Counted from the first letter of the stretch, positions 53,601 through 59,704 are shown. The stretch: DNA of 64,000 bases from an uncultured Propionibacteriales bacterium (GCA_965653225.1 CBFGZI010000003.1:2831-66830); one strand, 5' to 3'. A program made the numbers and translations. Notes: a model not told the origin generated them from the letters alone.

Positions 53601-54029
53601 GGCCACCTTCTGCGCGACCGCCATGCGCCGCCCCTGGTCGACCGCGCCGTCGATCAGGCCCAGATGCCGGCCGAGCGTGCGACACCACGCCTCCGAGGCG
53701 CACCCGTCGATGACCTCCAGCAGCGGCCACGGCAGCCGGTGCTGGGCCCACGGGTCGTCGTCTGCGTCCATACCCGAGCCGGCCGCGACCGCCTCGCGCA
53801 CCAGCCGCCCGGGCGACGGGAACACGACGTTGGCGCACACTCCGTCGCCGCGGCCCTCTTGTGTGCCCAGCACTGACGAGAGCGACTGCGCGATCCACCG
53901 CTCCACGCCCCTTGACGGCACCGCCACCACATCAGGCGTGAACGGGTCACCCGGCGCCGCGCGCAGCACGCCCGCAAGGCCCGCAACCAAGGCGTCAGCC
54001 CGCTCGGCTCGGTGGATCCTCAGCGGCAC
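50616..54029 (-). CDS. recC: Exodeoxyribonuclease V subunit gamma
   Basis: About 1137 aa. N-terminus LRIHRAERADALVAGLAGVL...VAVPSRGVERWIAQSLS is typical of RecC. Start set to the in-frame GTG (codon 43 of ORF 50616..54155). Confidence 0.9.
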   Translation of the reverse strand: MPLRIHRAERADALVAGLAGVLRAAPGDPFTPDVVAVPSRGVERWIAQSLSSVLGTQEGRGDGVCANVVFPSPGRLVREAVAAGSGMDADDDPWAQHRLPWPLLEVIDGCASEAWCRTLGRHLGLIDGAVDQGRRMAVAQKVAGLFASYGAQRPTMVRDWLDGRDSDGYGDPLDADHRWQAELWRRLRDRIGVASPAERAEEAVAQLRDQAALVELPERLSIFGPTRLSTAEIQVLDALAAQREMHVWLPYPSSGLWEHVAEATAETQLRVPTRRDDPTADVPEHPLVRSLGRDAREMQLRLQANTRVDSDEHIPVEPDGETLLAALQRDIHADRAPTGEHLLGDHDTSVQVHACHGRQRQVEVLREVLLGLLADDPTLEPRDLIVMCPDIESYAPLVAAAFGLSASDLDDASGEWSENAHPGHRLSVRLADRSLRQTNPVLAVAARLLELADSRLTASEVLDLAAMPPVRRRFHLDDDSLERVGDWVRRSGVRWGLDAEARSSFGLGEFHQNTWQSGLDRILVGVTMAEDDLRSVDGTLPLDDVDSNEIDLAGRLAELLDRLAAAVEALNREQTLDKWLAALGDAVESLVAVSPRDSWQVSQARWQLADTLTAAEGHTEGTALRLSDVRALLGERLKGRPTRANFRTGALTMCTMVPMRSVPHRVVCLLGLDDGVFPRTTRVDGDDILARRPHVGERDARAEDRQLFLDAILAAKERLVCVYSGADERTGAERPPAVPLGELLDVLDRTAQVPTGRARDRVLTRHPLQPFDARNFVAGDMVREEPFSFDRSAYEGSRALLRERRPRPPFLPAPVPDPDPPQVVELDALVRFLEHPARGFLRQRLELSTTDEEDEPSDAIPVDPDGLERWSVGDRLLRAGVAGIPDDRAVRAEWLRGQLPPGRLGDDIVTPIAEQVAELVDTSARLRSIDPTQADVSVTLPSGVTLAGTVPSIHGDCIVRVVYSKLSPKHRLRAWVYLLALQAHASESAWRAATVGRNPDWRGGNVLGSFLRDVSPQDALAHLDTLVKVHRTGLTFPLPLPPETSCRYAEKRGDGKSVHTAVTYARSAWRRKGSGPQEFGEFGDAQNRLVWGDVQIQALLDHPPEADGTYPEEPHLFGQLARRVWSPLLAAEETRQG

Positions 54030-54280
54030 GTCTCTACCCCCGTGTCTGCCACCTAGCGACCATAACGAACAGGTCGGACTGTCTACAGGTGGTCCACAGG
54101 TACAGCAGGCTCCCTTGCAGGCGGTCAGGTGCCCTCTGGTCCGGCGTATCCACATCGGGAGCGGTGAACAACAATCCTTCCCTCGGGTGTGTCACTCCGC
54201 TCCGGACGCCCGGAAAGCGCCTCGTCGTCCGCGCCGCACCGCGGACATGCGACAGCCGGCATCACACCTCCTTCAGGAGC

Positions 54281-54778
54281 TCATCCACGCGGATGATCCG
54301 GCGGAAAAATCCGGACCCCCCCAGACCCGATGACGCACGAGGTCGCCTGCGACCAGATCTCGTTGAGACGGGAGGCTGCTGGTTCTCGCACCTCGACTCC
54401 AGAGGACTGCAAGTAGTTCCACGGGACTTGATCGACCAGTTCCAGCAGCATATTGGTGTCTACTCGCTCTTCGACGGGTATGCACTGGTGCCACCGAACG
54501 TCGATGTACGACGTAGTGCGGTCGCCACCGTCCCAGTGCATGTCCTTGAAGGGCACACTCGTTGCCTCCCCGCGGGCAACCAGACCGCGTCCCTTAGTCC
54601 CCTGGCGCAACAGAAAGACGATGTCGCCGGGTGCTACACCCCTGACTCTGTTACCGACGCTCCACGTACCCTCGATGACTCCGCCTTGCGCCGTCTGCTC
54701 CACGTAGGCGTTCCAGTCATCGCTGAGAGCCGGCCACTTATCGGGGTTCCAGGTGAGCAGGATCGTTCGGGCCGTCAT
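54281..54778 (-). CDS. Hypothetical protein, possibly PUA/EVE-like fold
   Basis: 165 aa. ILLTWNPDKW...GTWSVGNRVRGVAPGDIVFLLRQGTKGRGLVARGEATS... resembles EVE/PUA-like beta-barrel modules by eye only. 4-nt overlap with the upstream XRE gene. Confidence 0.45.
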   Translation of the reverse strand: MTARTILLTWNPDKWPALSDDWNAYVEQTAQGGVIEGTWSVGNRVRGVAPGDIVFLLRQGTKGRGLVARGEATSVPFKDMHWDGGDRTTSYIDVRWHQCIPVEERVDTNMLLELVDQVPWNYLQSSGVEVREPAASRLNEIWSQATSCVIGSGGVRIFPPDHPRG

Positions 54779-55287
54779 CGGTCACCAGTTTCGCGGCGTT
54801 CGTCGATGAGCTGCTCCATAACTCGACGCTGTGCGGCATTGATGACGTCGAGACGCTGCTCTTGGGGCAGCTGACCCACCAGGTCGGCGATCTGCTGAGC
54901 CACGCGCCTCGGGTCGGACGGCGGCGGGCCGGCCGCGGCGGGGACCGCGAGAGCCGCCGCGGATTCTTCGTACTGCGGGTTCGTGTACCAGCTCTCCCGG
55001 GCCCGCGCCGCTCGCGGCCGCCGGGGTGAGCCCAGGTCCGACGAGGCGAGCGCCTCCTCGTACGGGATCGATGCCGACAGCTCGCTGGGCGACAGCTCCA
55101 ACGCCTCGGCAAGCGCGGCGAGCGCCTTGTGCGACGGCAGCCGGTAGCCGGTCTCCAGCTGCGACACATACGGATACGACAAGCCACTGGCCTCGACGAG
55201 GTCGCGCCGGCTCAGGCCGAGCTCCTCGCGGCGCGCCTTGATCCGGCGGCCGAAGGCCTCGGCTCCCGGCTCCTTCCGTGCGGCCAT
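54775..55287 (-). CDS. XRE-family helix-turn-helix transcriptional regulator with a C-terminal extension
   Basis: FGRRIKARREELGLSRRDLVEASGLSYPYVSQLETGYRLPSHKALAALAEALELS is the canonical Cro/C1 HTH. Confidence 0.85.
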   Translation of the reverse strand: MAARKEPGAEAFGRRIKARREELGLSRRDLVEASGLSYPYVSQLETGYRLPSHKALAALAEALELSPSELSASIPYEEALASSDLGSPRRPRAARARESWYTNPQYEESAAALAVPAAAGPPPSDPRRVAQQIADLVGQLPQEQRLDVINAAQRRVMEQLIDERRETGDR

Positions 55288-55291
55288 CGCC

Positions 55292-55340
55292 TATGCTCCT
55301 TGCATAACTCTGCTCTGTGCATTATGCTGCTCTCAGCATA
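55292..55340. promoter_or_regulatory. Two related inverted repeats (candidate operators) in the 78-bp divergent XRE / vWA intergenic region
   Basis: TATGC-tcctt-GCATA (55292-55306) and TATGCTG-ctct-CAGCATA (55323-55340). This is the most AT-rich stretch locally, and GGGGAGGG precedes the vWA ATG. Confidence 0.5.
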
Positions 55341-55365
55341 AGAGTACGACATAGGGGAGGGAACC

Positions 55366-56634
55366 ATGAAGATCGACGCGCAGATGGGTGTGGACCTGGT
55401 TGCGGTCGAGGGCGAGGAGGAGCTGTCGGCTCTGATCGCGCTCACGGCGCCGGAGAGCCCGCAGCAGGACGCCGAGCGCACGCCCAGCACGCTCATCGTC
55501 GTACTCGACCGGAGCGGCTCGATGGCCGGTGACCGGCTGGAGGGGGCAAAGCGGGCCCTGCTCTCCCTGGTCGACCGCCTCTCCCCCACCGACCGGTTCG
55601 GGCTGGTCACTTTCGACGACCACGTCCGCGTCGAGGTCCCGGCCGCCACCATGACCGACAAGCCGGCCGTCAAGGCCCGGATCGCGCACATCCACTCCGG
55701 CGGAACCACCAACCTCTCCGCCGGCTACCTCCGCGGCCTGCAGGAGGCGCGCCGAGTCGCGGCCGACGAGGGCGCCACCGTGCTGCTCATCAGCGACGGC
55801 CATGCCAACGCCGGCGTCACCGAGCCCGACCAGCTCGCCAGCGTCTCCGTCACGTACGCCCAGAAGCACGTGACCACCTCCACGCTCGGCTACGGCCTCG
55901 GGTACGACGAGCGCCTCCTCACCGCGATCACGAAGGGCGGTCGGGGCAACGAGCACTTCGCCGAGGACCCCGACACGGCGGCAGCGCTGATCGCCGGCGA
56001 GGTCACCGGCCTGCTCAGCCAGACCATCCAGGCGGCCTCGCTGACCATCCAGATGTCGCCGCACGTCCGCGGCGTACGGCTCGCCAACGACCTACAGGTC
56101 GCCCCGGTCGTCAACGGTCTGCAGGTCGAGCTCGGCAGTCTCTGGGCCGGCGAGGAGCGCAAGCTCGTACTCGTCTTCGACGTCCCGCAGCTCCCCGCGC
56201 TCGGTCTTACCGAGATCGCTTCGCTGGAGCTCCGCTACGTCGACACGGTCGAGCTCAAGGAGGAGACGGTGACGATCCCGCTGCACGTCAACGTCGTCCC
56301 CGGCGACCAGGCGGCCGGCCGCACGGTCAACCCGGTCGTCGCCACCGAGCTGGCGTTCCAGGAGGCCCAGCGCGCCAAGCGCGAGGCCTCGCGGCGCCTG
56401 TACGAGGGCGACGTGGCCGGCGCTGCCATGCAGCTCGGCATGGCGGGTTCGGCGATCGCCGACGCCATGGGATGGGCTCCGGTCGAGTCCAGGGCCGAGC
56501 TGTCCGACGAAGCCGCGGAGATCGACCAGATGATGCACGAGGCCCGGTACGGCGAGATGACGCGGGCGTCCAAGCGCCTCTCCTCCGACGCCGCGCGCAA
56601 GTCGCGCCAGCGCGGCCGCCGCGACATCTTCTGA
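55366..56634 (+). CDS. von Willebrand factor type A (vWA) domain protein with a large C-terminal extension
   Basis: MIDAS motif VVLDRSGSMAGDRL, plus GGTTNLSAG and LLISDGHANAG. About 200 aa beta-rich region and a helical tail follow. Confidence 0.85.
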   Translation: MKIDAQMGVDLVAVEGEEELSALIALTAPESPQQDAERTPSTLIVVLDRSGSMAGDRLEGAKRALLSLVDRLSPTDRFGLVTFDDHVRVEVPAATMTDKPAVKARIAHIHSGGTTNLSAGYLRGLQEARRVAADEGATVLLISDGHANAGVTEPDQLASVSVTYAQKHVTTSTLGYGLGYDERLLTAITKGGRGNEHFAEDPDTAAALIAGEVTGLLSQTIQAASLTIQMSPHVRGVRLANDLQVAPVVNGLQVELGSLWAGEERKLVLVFDVPQLPALGLTEIASLELRYVDTVELKEETVTIPLHVNVVPGDQAAGRTVNPVVATELAFQEAQRAKREASRRLYEGDVAGAAMQLGMAGSAIADAMGWAPVESRAELSDEAAEIDQMMHEARYGEMTRASKRLSSDAARKSRQRGRRDIF

Positions 56635-56655
56635 GCGACCAGCACTGTCGGTGCC

Positions 56656-57642
56656 GTGCGCGACCATGTCCGCATGCGCGACGACGTGCTTCCCCGCGAC
56701 GTCCCCACCGACCAGCAGGCTCTCTTCCCCGACGTCGGTGGGGACTCGGTGGGCACGCCCGACGACGCGACCCGCGTTCTCGACGAGCTTGTGCACGACG
56801 CCCGGATGTACCGCTCAGGGAGCGCGTTTCGCGAGCTGCTCGAGTTCGCGGGTCGCTTCCGGTTCTACTCCCCCTTCAACGCCATGTTGGTCCGCGCCCA
56901 GCTGCCAGGCGCCACGTTCGTCGCGCCGGCGCGACGCGGGCGGGCGACGTACGGCCGCGCGGTCCGGGCCGCGGCGCGACCGATCGTCATGCTGCGTCCA
57001 CGCGGGCCGGTGATGATCGTGTTCGACGTCTCCGACACGGTGCCCGTCCAGGGTGAGGCGCTCCCGCTGCCGCCCGAGGTGCTGCGGCCGTTCGAGATCA
57101 GCCGCCTGCCCGATATCGAGGCGATCATGGCGCGCACCGAGCGCAACGCTGTGCGCGACGGCGTACGCGTCGCGCCGGCGCGAGCGGGCTCGCAGCAGGG
57201 TGGCCGGATCCAGACCGCGCCCGGCCCGGCACTGCAGCTCAACGTACGTCGAAGCAACGCAACCGAGATCGTCTACGTACCGCAGCGCTACGTCGCCTGC
57301 CTCAACGCCGACCACGACCCGTCCCGGCAGTACGCCACGCTCGTGCACGAGCTCGCCCACCTCTACTGCGGGCATCTCGGCACTCCTGACGAGCGGTGGT
57401 GGCCCAACCGGAGCCGGCTAGACCACGCGACCGAGGAGTTCGAGGCGGAGGCGGTGTCGTACATTGTCTGCAAGCGGATCGACGACAACCTGCGGTTCCC
57501 GCCGTACCTCGCGCATCTGCTGGAGGGCGACGAGCCGCCGCCGTTCAGCCTGGACCGGATCGTCAAGGTCGCCGGTGACATCGAGCAGATGGGCAAGCAG
57601 AACCTGCCGCCGCGCAAGGACATGCCGCGCACACGGCGCTAG
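56656..57642 (+). CDS. ArdC-like protein: ssDNA-binding-type N-domain + HExxH zincin (ImmA/IrrE-like) C-domain
   Basis: FYSPFNAMLVRAQ (ArdC-N YSxxNxxL-type motif) and HELAHLYCGH...EEFEAEAVSYIVCKR (HExxH plus a downstream Glu-rich helix). It starts 21 nt after the vWA stop. Start is GTG 56656 or ATG 56674. Confidence 0.6.
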   Translation: MRDHVRMRDDVLPRDVPTDQQALFPDVGGDSVGTPDDATRVLDELVHDARMYRSGSAFRELLEFAGRFRFYSPFNAMLVRAQLPGATFVAPARRGRATYGRAVRAAARPIVMLRPRGPVMIVFDVSDTVPVQGEALPLPPEVLRPFEISRLPDIEAIMARTERNAVRDGVRVAPARAGSQQGGRIQTAPGPALQLNVRRSNATEIVYVPQRYVACLNADHDPSRQYATLVHELAHLYCGHLGTPDERWWPNRSRLDHATEEFEAEAVSYIVCKRIDDNLRFPPYLAHLLEGDEPPPFSLDRIVKVAGDIEQMGKQNLPPRKDMPRTRR

Positions 57643-57654
57643 GGCGAGGATCCG

Positions 57655-58695
57655 TTACGCGGCGGGCGACGGCTTCCCGTATTCGTATCGGACGTCACTG
57701 GTCAGCGGCGTGTCTCCGACTAACCCCACCGCGCCAGGCAAGAGGCGTCCGTCACGGACACCACGGGCCACCGCGCACAGCCAGCCGGGCAACGGCGCCC
57801 GGGCATGCTCGTTTGCGGCCTCCATCGCCGCAGCGTCGTGCGCAGTCTCCCGGTCGACTCGCATCGGCCGTCTCTCGAACATCAGGCCAGGTGCCTGCTC
57901 GATCGGTACGAGGCGGCCGAGCAAGTGCTGACCGGCCTCGACATCATTCATGGCACCCAGGTCGAGGATCCGCCGCTGAAGCCCAGACGCAAGGTCCGTT
58001 GCGAGGATGTCTCCGCAGTCCTTTCCCTCGTAGCGCAAGGGGCGCAACGCCGCATCCACCCACGCCTGGAGCATCGAGCAGCCGGTCAGAAGACGCTGAC
58101 CGATGGCGGCATCGACGTAGTCCGCGAGCCCACCCAACATGTGAGTTGCCAGCTCGGCGCAGACCGCATCCGACGCGGCTACGAGCGTGCCCAAGCGGTA
58201 CAACGTCGCAGGATCGATGTCCGGGTCGCGTTCGTAGCAGGCGGCCAGCGTCAGACACACCGCTGTGTCGATACGCGGGTCGCGTTTACAGAGCATCCAC
58301 AGATATGACTGCCGTACCACCCAGCGGTTCAGCACCCATGAGGGCCCGTTATCCCCGAGCTCGATGACCTCTCGCAGTTGGCGCTCGTAGGGCGCATCCA
58401 CGATGTGTGGTGTGAGGAGATAGAGATCGAGAGCGCTCTGCGCATCGCCCGTAGTCTGCGCTTCGAAGCTCTGCGTCATCAGCCACTCGTCGTCTGCAGT
58501 GAGGTTGCGGTCTAATACGTCGACCAGCTCGTCAGGATGCACCTGGATCACGGCGTTCTGGCCGCACCCGCACGAGCACTCCTCGTCCGTCAGCGGCGAT
58601 GGACGTGACAGCTTGTCGGGCTTTCGGGTGGCGCCTGGACCATCAAGAGGCACCTGGCGTCGCGGCTTGCGTCGGTTGCTCACGGCGATGATCAT
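57655..58695 (-). CDS. Hypothetical protein (346 aa), N-terminal basic region with CSCGC motif
   Basis: Coding-like composition. Start taken at the internal ATG 58695, because the longer ORF would overlap the divergent SelW-like gene. No family recognised. Confidence 0.5.
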   Translation of the reverse strand: MIIAVSNRRKPRRQVPLDGPGATRKPDKLSRPSPLTDEECSCGCGQNAVIQVHPDELVDVLDRNLTADDEWLMTQSFEAQTTGDAQSALDLYLLTPHIVDAPYERQLREVIELGDNGPSWVLNRWVVRQSYLWMLCKRDPRIDTAVCLTLAACYERDPDIDPATLYRLGTLVAASDAVCAELATHMLGGLADYVDAAIGQRLLTGCSMLQAWVDAALRPLRYEGKDCGDILATDLASGLQRRILDLGAMNDVEAGQHLLGRLVPIEQAPGLMFERRPMRVDRETAHDAAAMEAANEHARAPLPGWLCAVARGVRDGRLLPGAVGLVGDTPLTSDVRYEYGKPSPAA

Positions 58696-58763
58696 GAGCC
58701 GTTCGCGCGTCCGGCAACAGGTCCAATGTCCCGCCTGTGGACAACGCGGGAACAGTCGGCGAC

Positions 58764-58781
58764 GGTTCCGCGGAACCGCGG
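58764..58781. promoter_or_regulatory. Palindrome GGTTCCGCGGAACC(gcgg) in a divergent intergenic region; exact 18-nt copy of the sequence at 25886-25903
   Basis: ggttccgcggaaccgcgg occurs identically at both loci. Here it lies between the starts at 58695 (-) and 58818 (+). Confidence 0.4.
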
Positions 58782-58817
58782 CAGACCCCGCCCCGGGCGC
58801 TTTGGCAAGGTAGAGCC

Positions 58818-59117
58818 ATGACCTCGGACACCGCGAAGCCACGGGTGGCCATCACGTACTGCACGCAGTGCAAGTGGCTGCTGCGCGCCGCGTGGATGGC
58901 GCAAGAGCTGCTCAACACATTCACCACGGAGCTCGGTGAGGTCGCGCTAGTCCCGGGCACCGGCGGGATCTTCCGCATCACCGTCGCCGACAAGCAGGTG
59001 TGGGACCGAAAGTCAGAGGGCGGCTTCCCCGAGATCACGACGTTGAAGCAGCGCGTGCGCGACGAGGTGGCACCGGAGCGGAACCTCGGGCACGCTGACA
59101 AGCGCGAGGACGGGTAA
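58818..59117 (+). CDS. SelT/SelW/SelH (Rdx) family redox protein, Cys-containing form
   Basis: VAITYCTQCKWLLRAAWMAQELL (CxxC at the Rdx position) ...GGIFRI...VWDRKSEGGFPE. Both motif cysteines are TGC codons, with no in-frame TGA. Confidence 0.75.
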   Translation: MTSDTAKPRVAITYCTQCKWLLRAAWMAQELLNTFTTELGEVALVPGTGGIFRITVADKQVWDRKSEGGFPEITTLKQRVRDEVAPERNLGHADKREDG

Positions 59118-59704
59118 TGAGCAGCCCTCGGTCATCCACACCCGACAACCCGCACGGTCACGGCACGTGGCGAACGAGGGACGGGGCCGCGGTCGCGTTT
59201 TCCGACGCGCGCAGAATCTGGACCAGGGAAGCACGAGCGGTGCTCGTCGACACGGCGCGGCGCTATCACGCCTACGTGACGTACGGCGAGCTCGCCGAGG
59301 CAGTTCAGGCCCGAACCGGGATCCGTACCCGGTCCCAGATGCGGAACTGGATCGGCTGGGTGCTCGGCCGTGTGGCTGACGACTGTGAGCGCAGAAACGA
59401 GCCTCCATTGTCGGCACTGTGCGTGCGCCAGGATGAGACCGTCGGCGAGGGATATGCCTACGTAGTCGAAATCCAGGGCAAGCCGATCCCCGACGACCTC
59501 GACCAGCACGCAGCGGAGGCGAGGCTGGAGTGCTATCGCTTCTTCGGGGCGGATCTGCCGCCCGACGGCGGTCGGGCCGCTCTCACTCCGAAGGTGGCGG
59601 CCGCGCGACACCGTGCAAAGGGACGCCACTCAGAGTCCGTTGATGTCTGCCCTCACTGCCATACTGCCCTTCCAAAGAGCGGGATCTGCGACTACTGCAG
59701 CTGA
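59117..59704 (+). CDS. Hypothetical protein with a C-terminal zinc ribbon (CPHC...CDYC)
   Basis: ATG overlaps the SelW-like stop (TAATG). Coding-like GC3. No family recognised. Confidence 0.5.
   Translation: MSSPRSSTPDNPHGHGTWRTRDGAAVAFSDARRIWTREARAVLVDTARRYHAYVTYGELAEAVQARTGIRTRSQMRNWIGWVLGRVADDCERRNEPPLSALCVRQDETVGEGYAYVVEIQGKPIPDDLDQHAAEARLECYRFFGADLPPDGGRAALTPKVAAARHRAKGRHSESVDVCPHCHTALPKSGICDYCS

Follow-up and report, generated by a model that had tools for sequence, protein, structure and literature searches.

This analysis concerns a group of four genes at positions 54281-57642 of a 64,000-nt stretch of DNA from an uncultured Propionibacteriales bacterium (GCA_965653225.1 CBFGZI010000003.1:2831-66830), the whole of which is referred to as the window. 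On the minus strand lie the gene for an EVE/YTH-like protein (54281-54778, 165 amino acids, defined by an open reading frame (ORF) call and by structure prediction) and the gene for an XRE-type regulator (54775-55287, 170 amino acids), which is a predicted repressor of two divergent promoters. The EVE-like ORF overlaps the stop codon of the XRE gene by 4 nt (ATGA). A divergent promoter/operator region of 78 bp (55288-55365), which contains direct repeats and an inverted repeat, separates these genes from two genes on the plus strand, one for a protein with a von Willebrand factor A (vWA) domain (55366-56634, 422 amino acids, PF00092 with a metal ion-dependent adhesion site, MIDAS) and one for an ArdC-like HExxH metalloprotease, hereafter the zincin (56656-57642, 328 amino acids from a GTG start). 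The gap between the vWA and zincin genes, in which no terminator was found, is 21 nt from the GTG or 39 nt from an alternative ATG at 56674, which yields 322 amino acids and is the start picked by gene callers for an identical database protein (P0001). The recC and recB genes are located immediately upstream of the four-gene locus. All four ORFs are present where the initial annotation of this DNA had placed them, as are the overlap of 4 nt, the gap of 21 nt and the 78-bp spacer with its repeats, and the peptide motifs quoted there for the zincin and the vWA protein are all found in the translations.

The XRE regulator matches the helix-turn-helix (HTH) families HTH_3 (PF01381, 48.9 bits) and HTH_31 (48.2 bits) over residues 11-70, which bears out its assignment. 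Further matches to the PADLOC models capH (E 4.5e-6), HTH_VI and Control_protein are confined to the HTH, and the C-terminal region is subfamily-specific, with the conserved motifs W..NP.Y and LP..qRL. The spacer between the divergent genes has a GC content of 51%, compared with approximately 71% in its flanks. It harbors three 14-nt direct repeats of the form TGCTCnnnGCATWA with 17-nt spacing (55294-55307, 55311-55324 and 55328-55341), a perfect 8-nt inverted repeat (TTATGCTG/CAGCATAA, at 55322-55329 and 55334-55341) and, 5′ of the vWA ATG, the ribosome-binding site GGGGAGGG. The repeat pattern occurs 4 times in the 64-kb window against an expectation of 0.32, with 0 of 100 shuffles reaching 4, and no further copy of the operator was found elsewhere in the 64 kb except for one site with a single mismatch.

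The vWA domain (PF00092, 72.6 bits) occupies residues 43-205 of its protein and contains the motifs DRSGSM (residues 48-53), GGTTNL (112-117) and SDGHAN (143-148). The MIDAS residues D48, S50, S52, T115 and D144 are invariant across 16 vWA orthologues, in agreement with the intact MIDAS proposed initially, and the C-terminal half of the protein, outside the vWA domain, is equally conserved. No signal peptide or hydrophobic segment was found by inspection, and the protein is apparently cytoplasmic. The closest vWA domains of known structure belong to ITIH heavy chains. Full-length orthologues with 50-60% identity occur widely across Actinomycetota, for example in Friedmanniella, Microlunatus, Catellatospora and Actinoplanes. 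A gamma-radiation-induced VIT-vWA protein of Limnobacter (bioRxiv 10.64898/2026.05.23.727404) is a distant lead only and is not used as evidence here.

Among 84 loci of full-length vWA orthologues (49-81% identity), a full-length XRE homologue is encoded divergently upstream in approximately 30, and in 19 of the 50 loci for which at least 700 nt of upstream sequence was available. The intergenic regions of these XRE-positive loci carry the same TATGC/GCATA-based palindromes. Within 160 nt upstream of the vWA gene the TATGC/GCATA pentamers have a mean count of 3.0 in XRE-positive loci, with three or more in 16 of 27, compared with a mean of 0.16, and three or more in 1 of 43, in XRE-negative vWA loci; the count in coding controls is 0. 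The motif is kept down to approximately 50% vWA identity and tracks the presence of the XRE gene, and by this pattern of conservation the TATGC/GCATA motifs are the phylogenetic footprint of an operator inherited along with the XRE gene. Because a divergent XRE gene is found in about 30 of the 84 vWA loci and the operator follows it, the XRE-vWA pair is considered a conserved unit, and on the same comparative grounds it is only this pair, not the set of four genes, that is conserved. Clustering of vWA neighbours revealed no recurrent partner besides XRE and none downstream, a negative that is weak since greedy ORF calling is noisy in high-GC DNA.

The position directly downstream of XRE on the same strand varies by lineage, being occupied by SIR2_2, a DinB-type polymerase, DUF6308, a YbjN-like gene or, in the window, the EVE-like gene (examples are L098:2606-4902, L105:2349-3923, L119 and L127), and a Pfam scan of the genes downstream of XRE returned unrelated functions. 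Judging from these loci, the position behaves like a variable cargo slot.

The zincin passes the Pfam family Peptidase_M78 (PF06114, ImmA/IrrE) with 26.7 bits against a gathering score of 22, and PF06114 is matched by all 79 aligned members of the zincin family. The protein consists of a divergent ArdC-N-like domain (approximately residues 35-150), which includes the motif FYSPFNAMLVRAQ at residues 70-82, and a following M78-type gluzincin domain with the motifs HELAHLYCGH (231-240) and EEFEAEA (260-266); H231, E232, H235, E261, E263 and E265 are invariant in the 79 sequences. The ArdcN family itself (PF08401) is not matched at E<=1 by any of the 79 members, the window protein included. The family profile nevertheless aligns by hhalign, across both domains, to plasmid proteins that combine ArdcN with a C-terminal zincin, encoded at L095 (probability 99.0%, E 5e-18), L096 (98.7%, E 3e-16) and L182 (98.8%, E 7e-17), of which the first two match PF08401 above threshold and the third carries PF08401 in precomputed Pfam annotation, and a tblastn search with the zincin against plasmids gave E 2e-9 over residues 35-326. 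The Peptidase_M78 pass and the full-length hhalign matches thus sustain the initial assignment as an ArdC-like zincin, at the level of remote homology. An AlphaFold2 model of the zincin (predicted local distance difference test (pLDDT) 85) retrieved nothing at E<0.06 when compared with the PDB by Foldseek, ArdC and IrrE not being recovered, and the family profile had no match among PDB sequences; a structure search of the model against BFVD gave weak IrrE and SprT matches.

The arrangement of an N-terminal ArdC-N-type domain followed by an HExxH gluzincin with a downstream ExxA "glutamate helix" is common to the zincin, to ArdC of R388 and to the ArdC-like proteins of Gram-positive plasmids (motifs compared as described in PMC7213743). 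Unlike plasmid ArdC, the window zincin is chromosomal, vertically inherited and located outside any transfer leading region, PF08401 is undetected in it, and its relatives belong to restriction or BREX-related operons of the host and not to incoming elements. In the motif HELAHLYCGHLG (window 57346-57375, residues 231-240), directly after HExxH, Cys238 is nearly invariant and His240 is invariant, and from this conservation the two residues might contribute an additional metal ligand or a regulatory cysteine; Cys238 does not occupy the place of the cysteine-switch loop of CapP.

The genomic surroundings of the zincin family were surveyed in 80 loci encoding relatives with 41-53% identity, 76 of which were usable for neighbour clustering. 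These loci span Acidobacteriota, Planctomycetota, Nitrospirota, Actinomycetota, Bacillota, Desulfobacterota and others, and an exhaustive search returned 1,962 cluster representatives of the family across many phyla, including proteins of approximately 580-705 amino acids. Restriction-type genes are neighbours on the same strand in at least 24 of the 76 loci, as assigned by clustering and by Pfam analysis of representatives; an SNF2 helicase-NOV_C nuclease is found in 12 loci, a DUF1156 adenine methylase in 11 and a HEPN-DUF499 ATPase in 5, and other neighbours include type I hsdR, hsdM and hsdS as well as GmrSD, PglZ, RAMP, TIR and methylase genes. The combination of SNF2-nuclease, DUF1156 methylase and DUF499 ATPase corresponds to the Type-1 BREX-related (BR) system, and the main text of the 2026 paper on BREX diversity in which it is described contains no peptidase or ArdC-like accessory (PMC12839542). 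In L017 (2785-14139), L023, L063 (818-11456) and L077, the zincin gene has the gene for the SNF2-nuclease helicase on one side and that for the DUF1156 methylase on the other; in L027 another large gene stands between it and the helicase gene. It precedes the HEPN-DUF499 ATPase gene where the latter is present. The zincins of these BREX-related loci are 45-50% identical to that of the window; none of the genes of the Type-1 BREX-related systems is found in the window.

Most members of the family are encoded on chromosomes, within defence operons of the host. Homologues on plasmids (35, distant) and in phages (3) were also found, and the plasmids with ArdC homologues encode relaxases as well, being MOB-typed as mobilizable or conjugative. 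In addition, the N-terminal halves of P0298 (679 amino acids) and P0351 (705 amino acids) carry the motifs DIADFF, LPQGAPTSG and YSDD of a retron-like reverse transcriptase (RT), and their C-terminal parts are ArdC-like zincins; P0253 (640 amino acids) has a different, repeat-like N-terminus. The existence of such RT-zincin fusions explains why the PADLOC model RT_III-A matches the zincin at profile positions 382-562. Mestre 2020 was considered as a source for this explanation and was set aside, as it contains no mention of it. From its distribution, the zincin family appears to supply conflict systems with a protease module that is host-side and DNA-linked, and not to be a repressor-specific ImmA.

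The EVE-like protein has no match in the Pfam, NCBIfam, PADLOC or PHROG libraries, the Pfam EVE family (PF01878) included. Its AlphaFold2 model (pLDDT 86) matches, with a Foldseek probability of 1.0, the PDB entries 2eve, the founding EVE structure (template modeling (TM) scores 0.60/0.66) and 2ar1 (0.65/0.68), and further matches at the same probability comprise YTH domains, THYN1 bound to 5-methylcytosine DNA and the EVE-HNH enzyme VcaM4I, the TM scores over this whole set ranging from 0.5 to 0.68. The PUA/EVE-like identity proposed initially is therefore upheld as remote homology. Several of the twelve homologues found are fusions with NOV_C/DUF3883 or HNH, and one (P0124) carries PF01878 EVE in precomputed annotation. 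The fold is thus common to the window protein and to the EVE/YTH/PUA readers, including the type IV enzyme VcaM4I, and homologues of the window protein, like the EVE-HNH enzymes, are joined to HNH or to the restriction endonuclease-like NOV_C; the window protein differs from these enzymes in having neither a nuclease domain nor a Pfam EVE match, and its family is tiny. The gene has a GC content of 0.616 and a GC content at third codon positions (GC3) of 0.729, compared with a GC3 of 0.84-0.94 for the XRE, vWA and zincin genes, and it is absent at the same site in L092, the closest relative, and in L002. By composition and distribution, the EVE-like gene is a strain-specific, compositionally foreign and recent insertion.

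Some homologues of the EVE-like protein are encoded near zincin or vWA genes. In L087:803-8817 (Actinotalea sp. K2), hsdM, hsdS, hsdR, an ArdC-like zincin gene and an EVE-like/NOV_C fusion gene follow each other on one strand, and judged by its gene content this locus is a second, independent juxtaposition of EVE-like and zincin genes. In L182:5352-10398, an EVE-like/NOV_C fusion is part of an actinobacterial conjugation-type cluster (DUF6112, TrbL_3, AAA_10) together with a true ArdcN-plus-zincin protein. In L186:2560-6453, a stand-alone EVE-like homologue of 150 amino acids is located 2 kb from a vWA paralogue with 30% identity, which has a MerR-type regulator as its partner and is surrounded by phosphatase and ADP-ribosylglycohydrolase genes.

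The initial annotation had proposed that the four genes form a self-contained switch, and this proposal fails when co-occurrence is examined. None of the 48 vWA loci with at least 1 kb of downstream sequence has a zincin gene downstream of vWA, and none of the 80 zincin loci has a vWA orthologue; an EVE-like gene is present in 1 of these 80 loci and an XRE-type HTH ORF, detected with an iterated HTH profile, lies within 500 nt in 4 of them. In L102 and L188, whose vWA proteins are 81-82% identical to that of the window, the XRE-vWA pair is followed by unrelated genes and the zincin gene is absent. Even L092, with a zincin 85% identical to that of the window, contains the XRE, vWA and zincin genes without the EVE-like gene.

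Close relatives share the synteny recC ... rdx-DAO-aldehyde dehydrogenase, and this permits a comparison of the same site between strains; the DAO and aldehyde dehydrogenase ORFs of the window (59.8-62.5 kb) are presumed to be such from their counterparts in the close-relative loci. In L001-L006, a deletion (window position 55065 to 56133) has fused the 3′ parts of the XRE and vWA genes to each other. A distinct deletion in L093 (55233 to 56291) has produced an XRE-vWA fusion of truncated genes, accompanied by DUF222 genes, and in L094 the loss extends from recC into vWA, of which only the last ~30 nt remain. XRE and vWA were removed by three independent deletions that spared the zincin, the ORF of which is intact in L092, L001-L006, L093 and L094. 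The ratio of nonsynonymous to synonymous substitution rates (dN/dS) of the zincin is 0.20-0.33 among same-locus relatives and 0.42 for the closest pair, L093 and L094, compared with 0.14 for recC, 0.27 for DAO and 0.24 for vWA, and the dS of the zincin is comparable to that of these three genes. Its position is kept in at least five relatives, and the GC3 of the XRE, vWA and zincin genes is host-like. Because its dS resembles that of the flanking genes, its dN/dS is low and its ORF remains intact after the deletions, the zincin is regarded as vertically inherited and as selected with or without XRE-vWA. In relatives, the region around XRE-vWA or the zincin gene contains genes for a Schlafen-like helicase, MazG, ERCC4-Lsr2 and DUF222/HNH proteins (L188:1-6400, L093:4072-5257), and the site appears, from these gene contents, to be a variable hotspot that resembles a defence island.

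As in the initial annotation, no named defence system was recognized at the locus. Of the PADLOC-DB v2 profiles, the only ones matched were generic HTH models and RT_III-A, the latter in its C-terminal part, with no match for the vWA and EVE-like proteins, and NCBIfam gave no equivalog assignment for the locus proteins. The statement that the locus adjoins recBCD with no integrase or conjugation genes nearby also agrees with the present data: no integrase, conjugation, relaxase or transfer gene is found among the 25 Pfam families listed, out of 51, for the large ORFs of the window, in a scan that covered the large ORFs up to 47.2 kb and the last ORF (62.8-64 kb), and no integrase, relaxase or transfer gene is found among the scanned neighbours of the four-gene module. 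Two further ORFs, 57655-58842 (minus strand, 395 amino acids) and 59117-59704 (plus strand, 195 amino acids), flank rdx. They have a GC3 of approximately 0.76, are missing from the relatives L002, L093 and L094, and match nothing in Pfam (at gathering score) or PHROGs; the 395-amino acid ORF, for which the NCBIfam and PADLOC libraries were also run, has no match there either. From composition and distribution, the two ORFs, which are compositionally foreign, look like strain-specific insertions. Alignment with relatives (window 53950-54160) suggests that recC starts near 54033 (VPLRIH...) rather than at the ATG of the longest ORF, 54155.

We consider it reasonably probable that three independently inherited modules have come together here as a mosaic, in a variable spot that separates recC from rdx in one high-GC actinobacterial lineage. 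The modules are taken as independent because of the co-occurrence counts given above (0 of 48, 0 of 80 and 4 of 80), because no gene recurs after vWA and because the slot behind XRE is variable. In the first module, the XRE protein most likely binds the TATGC/GCATA repeats as a multimer, and the conservation of the operator suggests that it would repress the divergent vWA promoter along with its own. In the second, the zincin would represent a chromosomal branch of the ArdC superfamily that combines an N-domain of the ssDNA (single-stranded DNA)-binding type with an ImmA/IrrE-type metalloprotease and that is inherited separately from XRE-vWA. Since its gene starts 21-39 nt behind vWA, the two are probably co-transcribed, and control of the zincin by XRE would be a matter of position only. 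Its activity is most likely a DNA-dependent (ssDNA-stimulated) proteolysis of a partner other than the neighbouring XRE protein, both ssDNA binding and protease activity being predicted from its domains. In the third, the EVE-like gene would have been inserted recently behind XRE, to which it is probably translationally coupled, and its product may be a stand-alone reader domain for modified bases, the relatives of which are joined to nucleases in the manner of modification-dependent restriction enzymes.

Several observations weigh against this interpretation. The genes of the compared loci were called by a heuristic procedure. The proximity of EVE-like homologues to ArdC-type proteins in L087 and L182 hints, as a matter of gene order, at a non-random association that a mosaic does not explain. 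The adjacency of vWA and zincin is, by the comparison of relatives, as old as the common ancestor of the window, L092, L002, L093 and L094, in which vWA or a remnant of it is kept, although the zincin is missing from L102 and L188, and the 21-39-nt gap fits an operon, so that a lineage-specific functional link between the two proteins may exist. Furthermore, peptidases of the ImmA/IrrE/CapP type cleave XRE-type repressors upon ssDNA binding (PMC13228613), and, as the zincin combines an ImmA/IrrE-type peptidase with a domain of the ssDNA-binding type, cleavage of XRE by it is conceivable.

The last point is the core of the model put forward in the initial annotation, a switch in which the protease would cleave the XRE repressor. 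In a CapP/CapH- or IrrE/DdrO-like form of this model, the zincin would sense ssDNA through its ArdC-N-like domain, cleave XRE and derepress the vWA-zincin and XRE-EVE operons as one unit triggered by damage or infection. The model is mechanistically reasonable. The zincin passes PF06114, and the HTH of the XRE protein is matched by the capH model of PADLOC (see above). IrrE, which cleaves DdrO, is the closest bacterial structural homologue of ArdC (PMC7213743), and CapP, a peptidase activated by ssDNA, acts on an HTH repressor that it cleaves next to immune operons (PMC13228613). Both the window and L092 have the arrangement in intact form, and the near-invariant Cys238 beside HExxH recalls the cysteine switch of CapP, although at a different position. 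An M78/COG2856-type peptidase above the Pfam threshold and a nearby XRE-type HTH gene are indeed common to the window and to the ImmA/ImmR, IrrE/DdrO and CapP/CapH systems, and ImmA/IrrE/CapP-type systems are triggered by ssDNA or DNA damage (PMC13228613). In the window, however, the protease gene does not adjoin the repressor gene, as it does in ImmA/ImmR or CapP/CapH, and the two are not co-conserved; the zincin has no PADLOC capP match and lacks the HTH and GAF domains of IrrE/CapP; no co-occurrence is seen outside the genus; and XRE-vWA pairs with the same operator occur without a zincin in approximately 30 loci. The protease, moreover, outlives the loss of the repressor, having been kept under purifying selection when XRE and vWA were deleted three times independently. 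Without comparative support and contradicted by the deletion series, the switch is judged unlikely.

Weaker still are two other explanations. If the vWA protein and the zincin were a functional pair, with vWA as a substrate recruiter or sensor for the protease and XRE as the regulator, the short gap without a terminator and the co-inheritance of the two genes in the window and L092 with similar dS would be accounted for, and pairings of vWA proteins with peptidases are described for MoxR-vWA ternary systems (PMC7159879). A cytoplasmic MIDAS vWA protein adjoins a peptidase both in these ternary conflict systems and in the window, whereas the window has neither a MoxR AAA+ ATPase, which is missing among the neighbours, nor an iSTAND component, and its vWA and peptidase genes are not co-conserved. 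The counts of 0 of 48 and 0 of 80, the different genes behind vWA in L102 and L188 and the threefold deletion of vWA with retention of the zincin all make such a partnership rather improbable. Least likely of all, and in our view hardly tenable, is a decayed integrated conjugative or mobilisable element, of which the zincin would be the ArdC anti-restriction gene and XRE, vWA and EVE the cargo. Such an origin would agree with the full-length remote homology to ArdC proteins of relaxase-encoding plasmids, with the EVE-NOV_C homologues in a TrbL/ArdcN conjugation cluster, and with the variability of the region between strains, where DUF222/HNH elements occupy the same site. It is opposed by the lack of integrase, relaxase and transfer genes within the Pfam families listed (25 of 51) and among the neighbours of the module, by the host-like GC3 of XRE, vWA and zincin, by the conserved position of the zincin in at least five relatives with a dS equal to that of flanking housekeeping genes, by the chromosomal location of most family members in host defence operons, and by the small number of distant plasmid matches (35) and of phage matches (3).

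We also put forward, tentatively and with considerable doubt, that the zincin family may be an unrecognised host-side module of DNA-targeting immunity, namely an ssDNA-binding metalloprotease that resides in BREX-related and type I restriction operons, is fused to retron-like RTs and might act as a DNA-triggered protease, for instance in restriction alleviation or effector activation. In the actinobacterial lineage of the window, it would have been captured behind an XRE-controlled vWA gene beside recBCD, and the XRE-vWA pair would be a second, undescribed regulatory module of actinobacteria.

The four-gene switch does not hold, and the locus is not to be pursued as a new defence system. What is new here is a chromosomal, defence-embedded branch of ArdC-like proteases and a conserved XRE-vWA pair with a defined operator. 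The pair, with its footprinted operator, offers an easy entry to the role of cytoplasmic vWA proteins in Actinomycetota. ArdC, which is known only as an anti-restriction factor of plasmids, has a large chromosomal sister family in host restriction-type systems, with fusions to RTs. A defence-embedded branch of ArdC would change the reading of ArdC-like proteases in genomes and would provide a route to DNA-dependent proteolysis in immunity.

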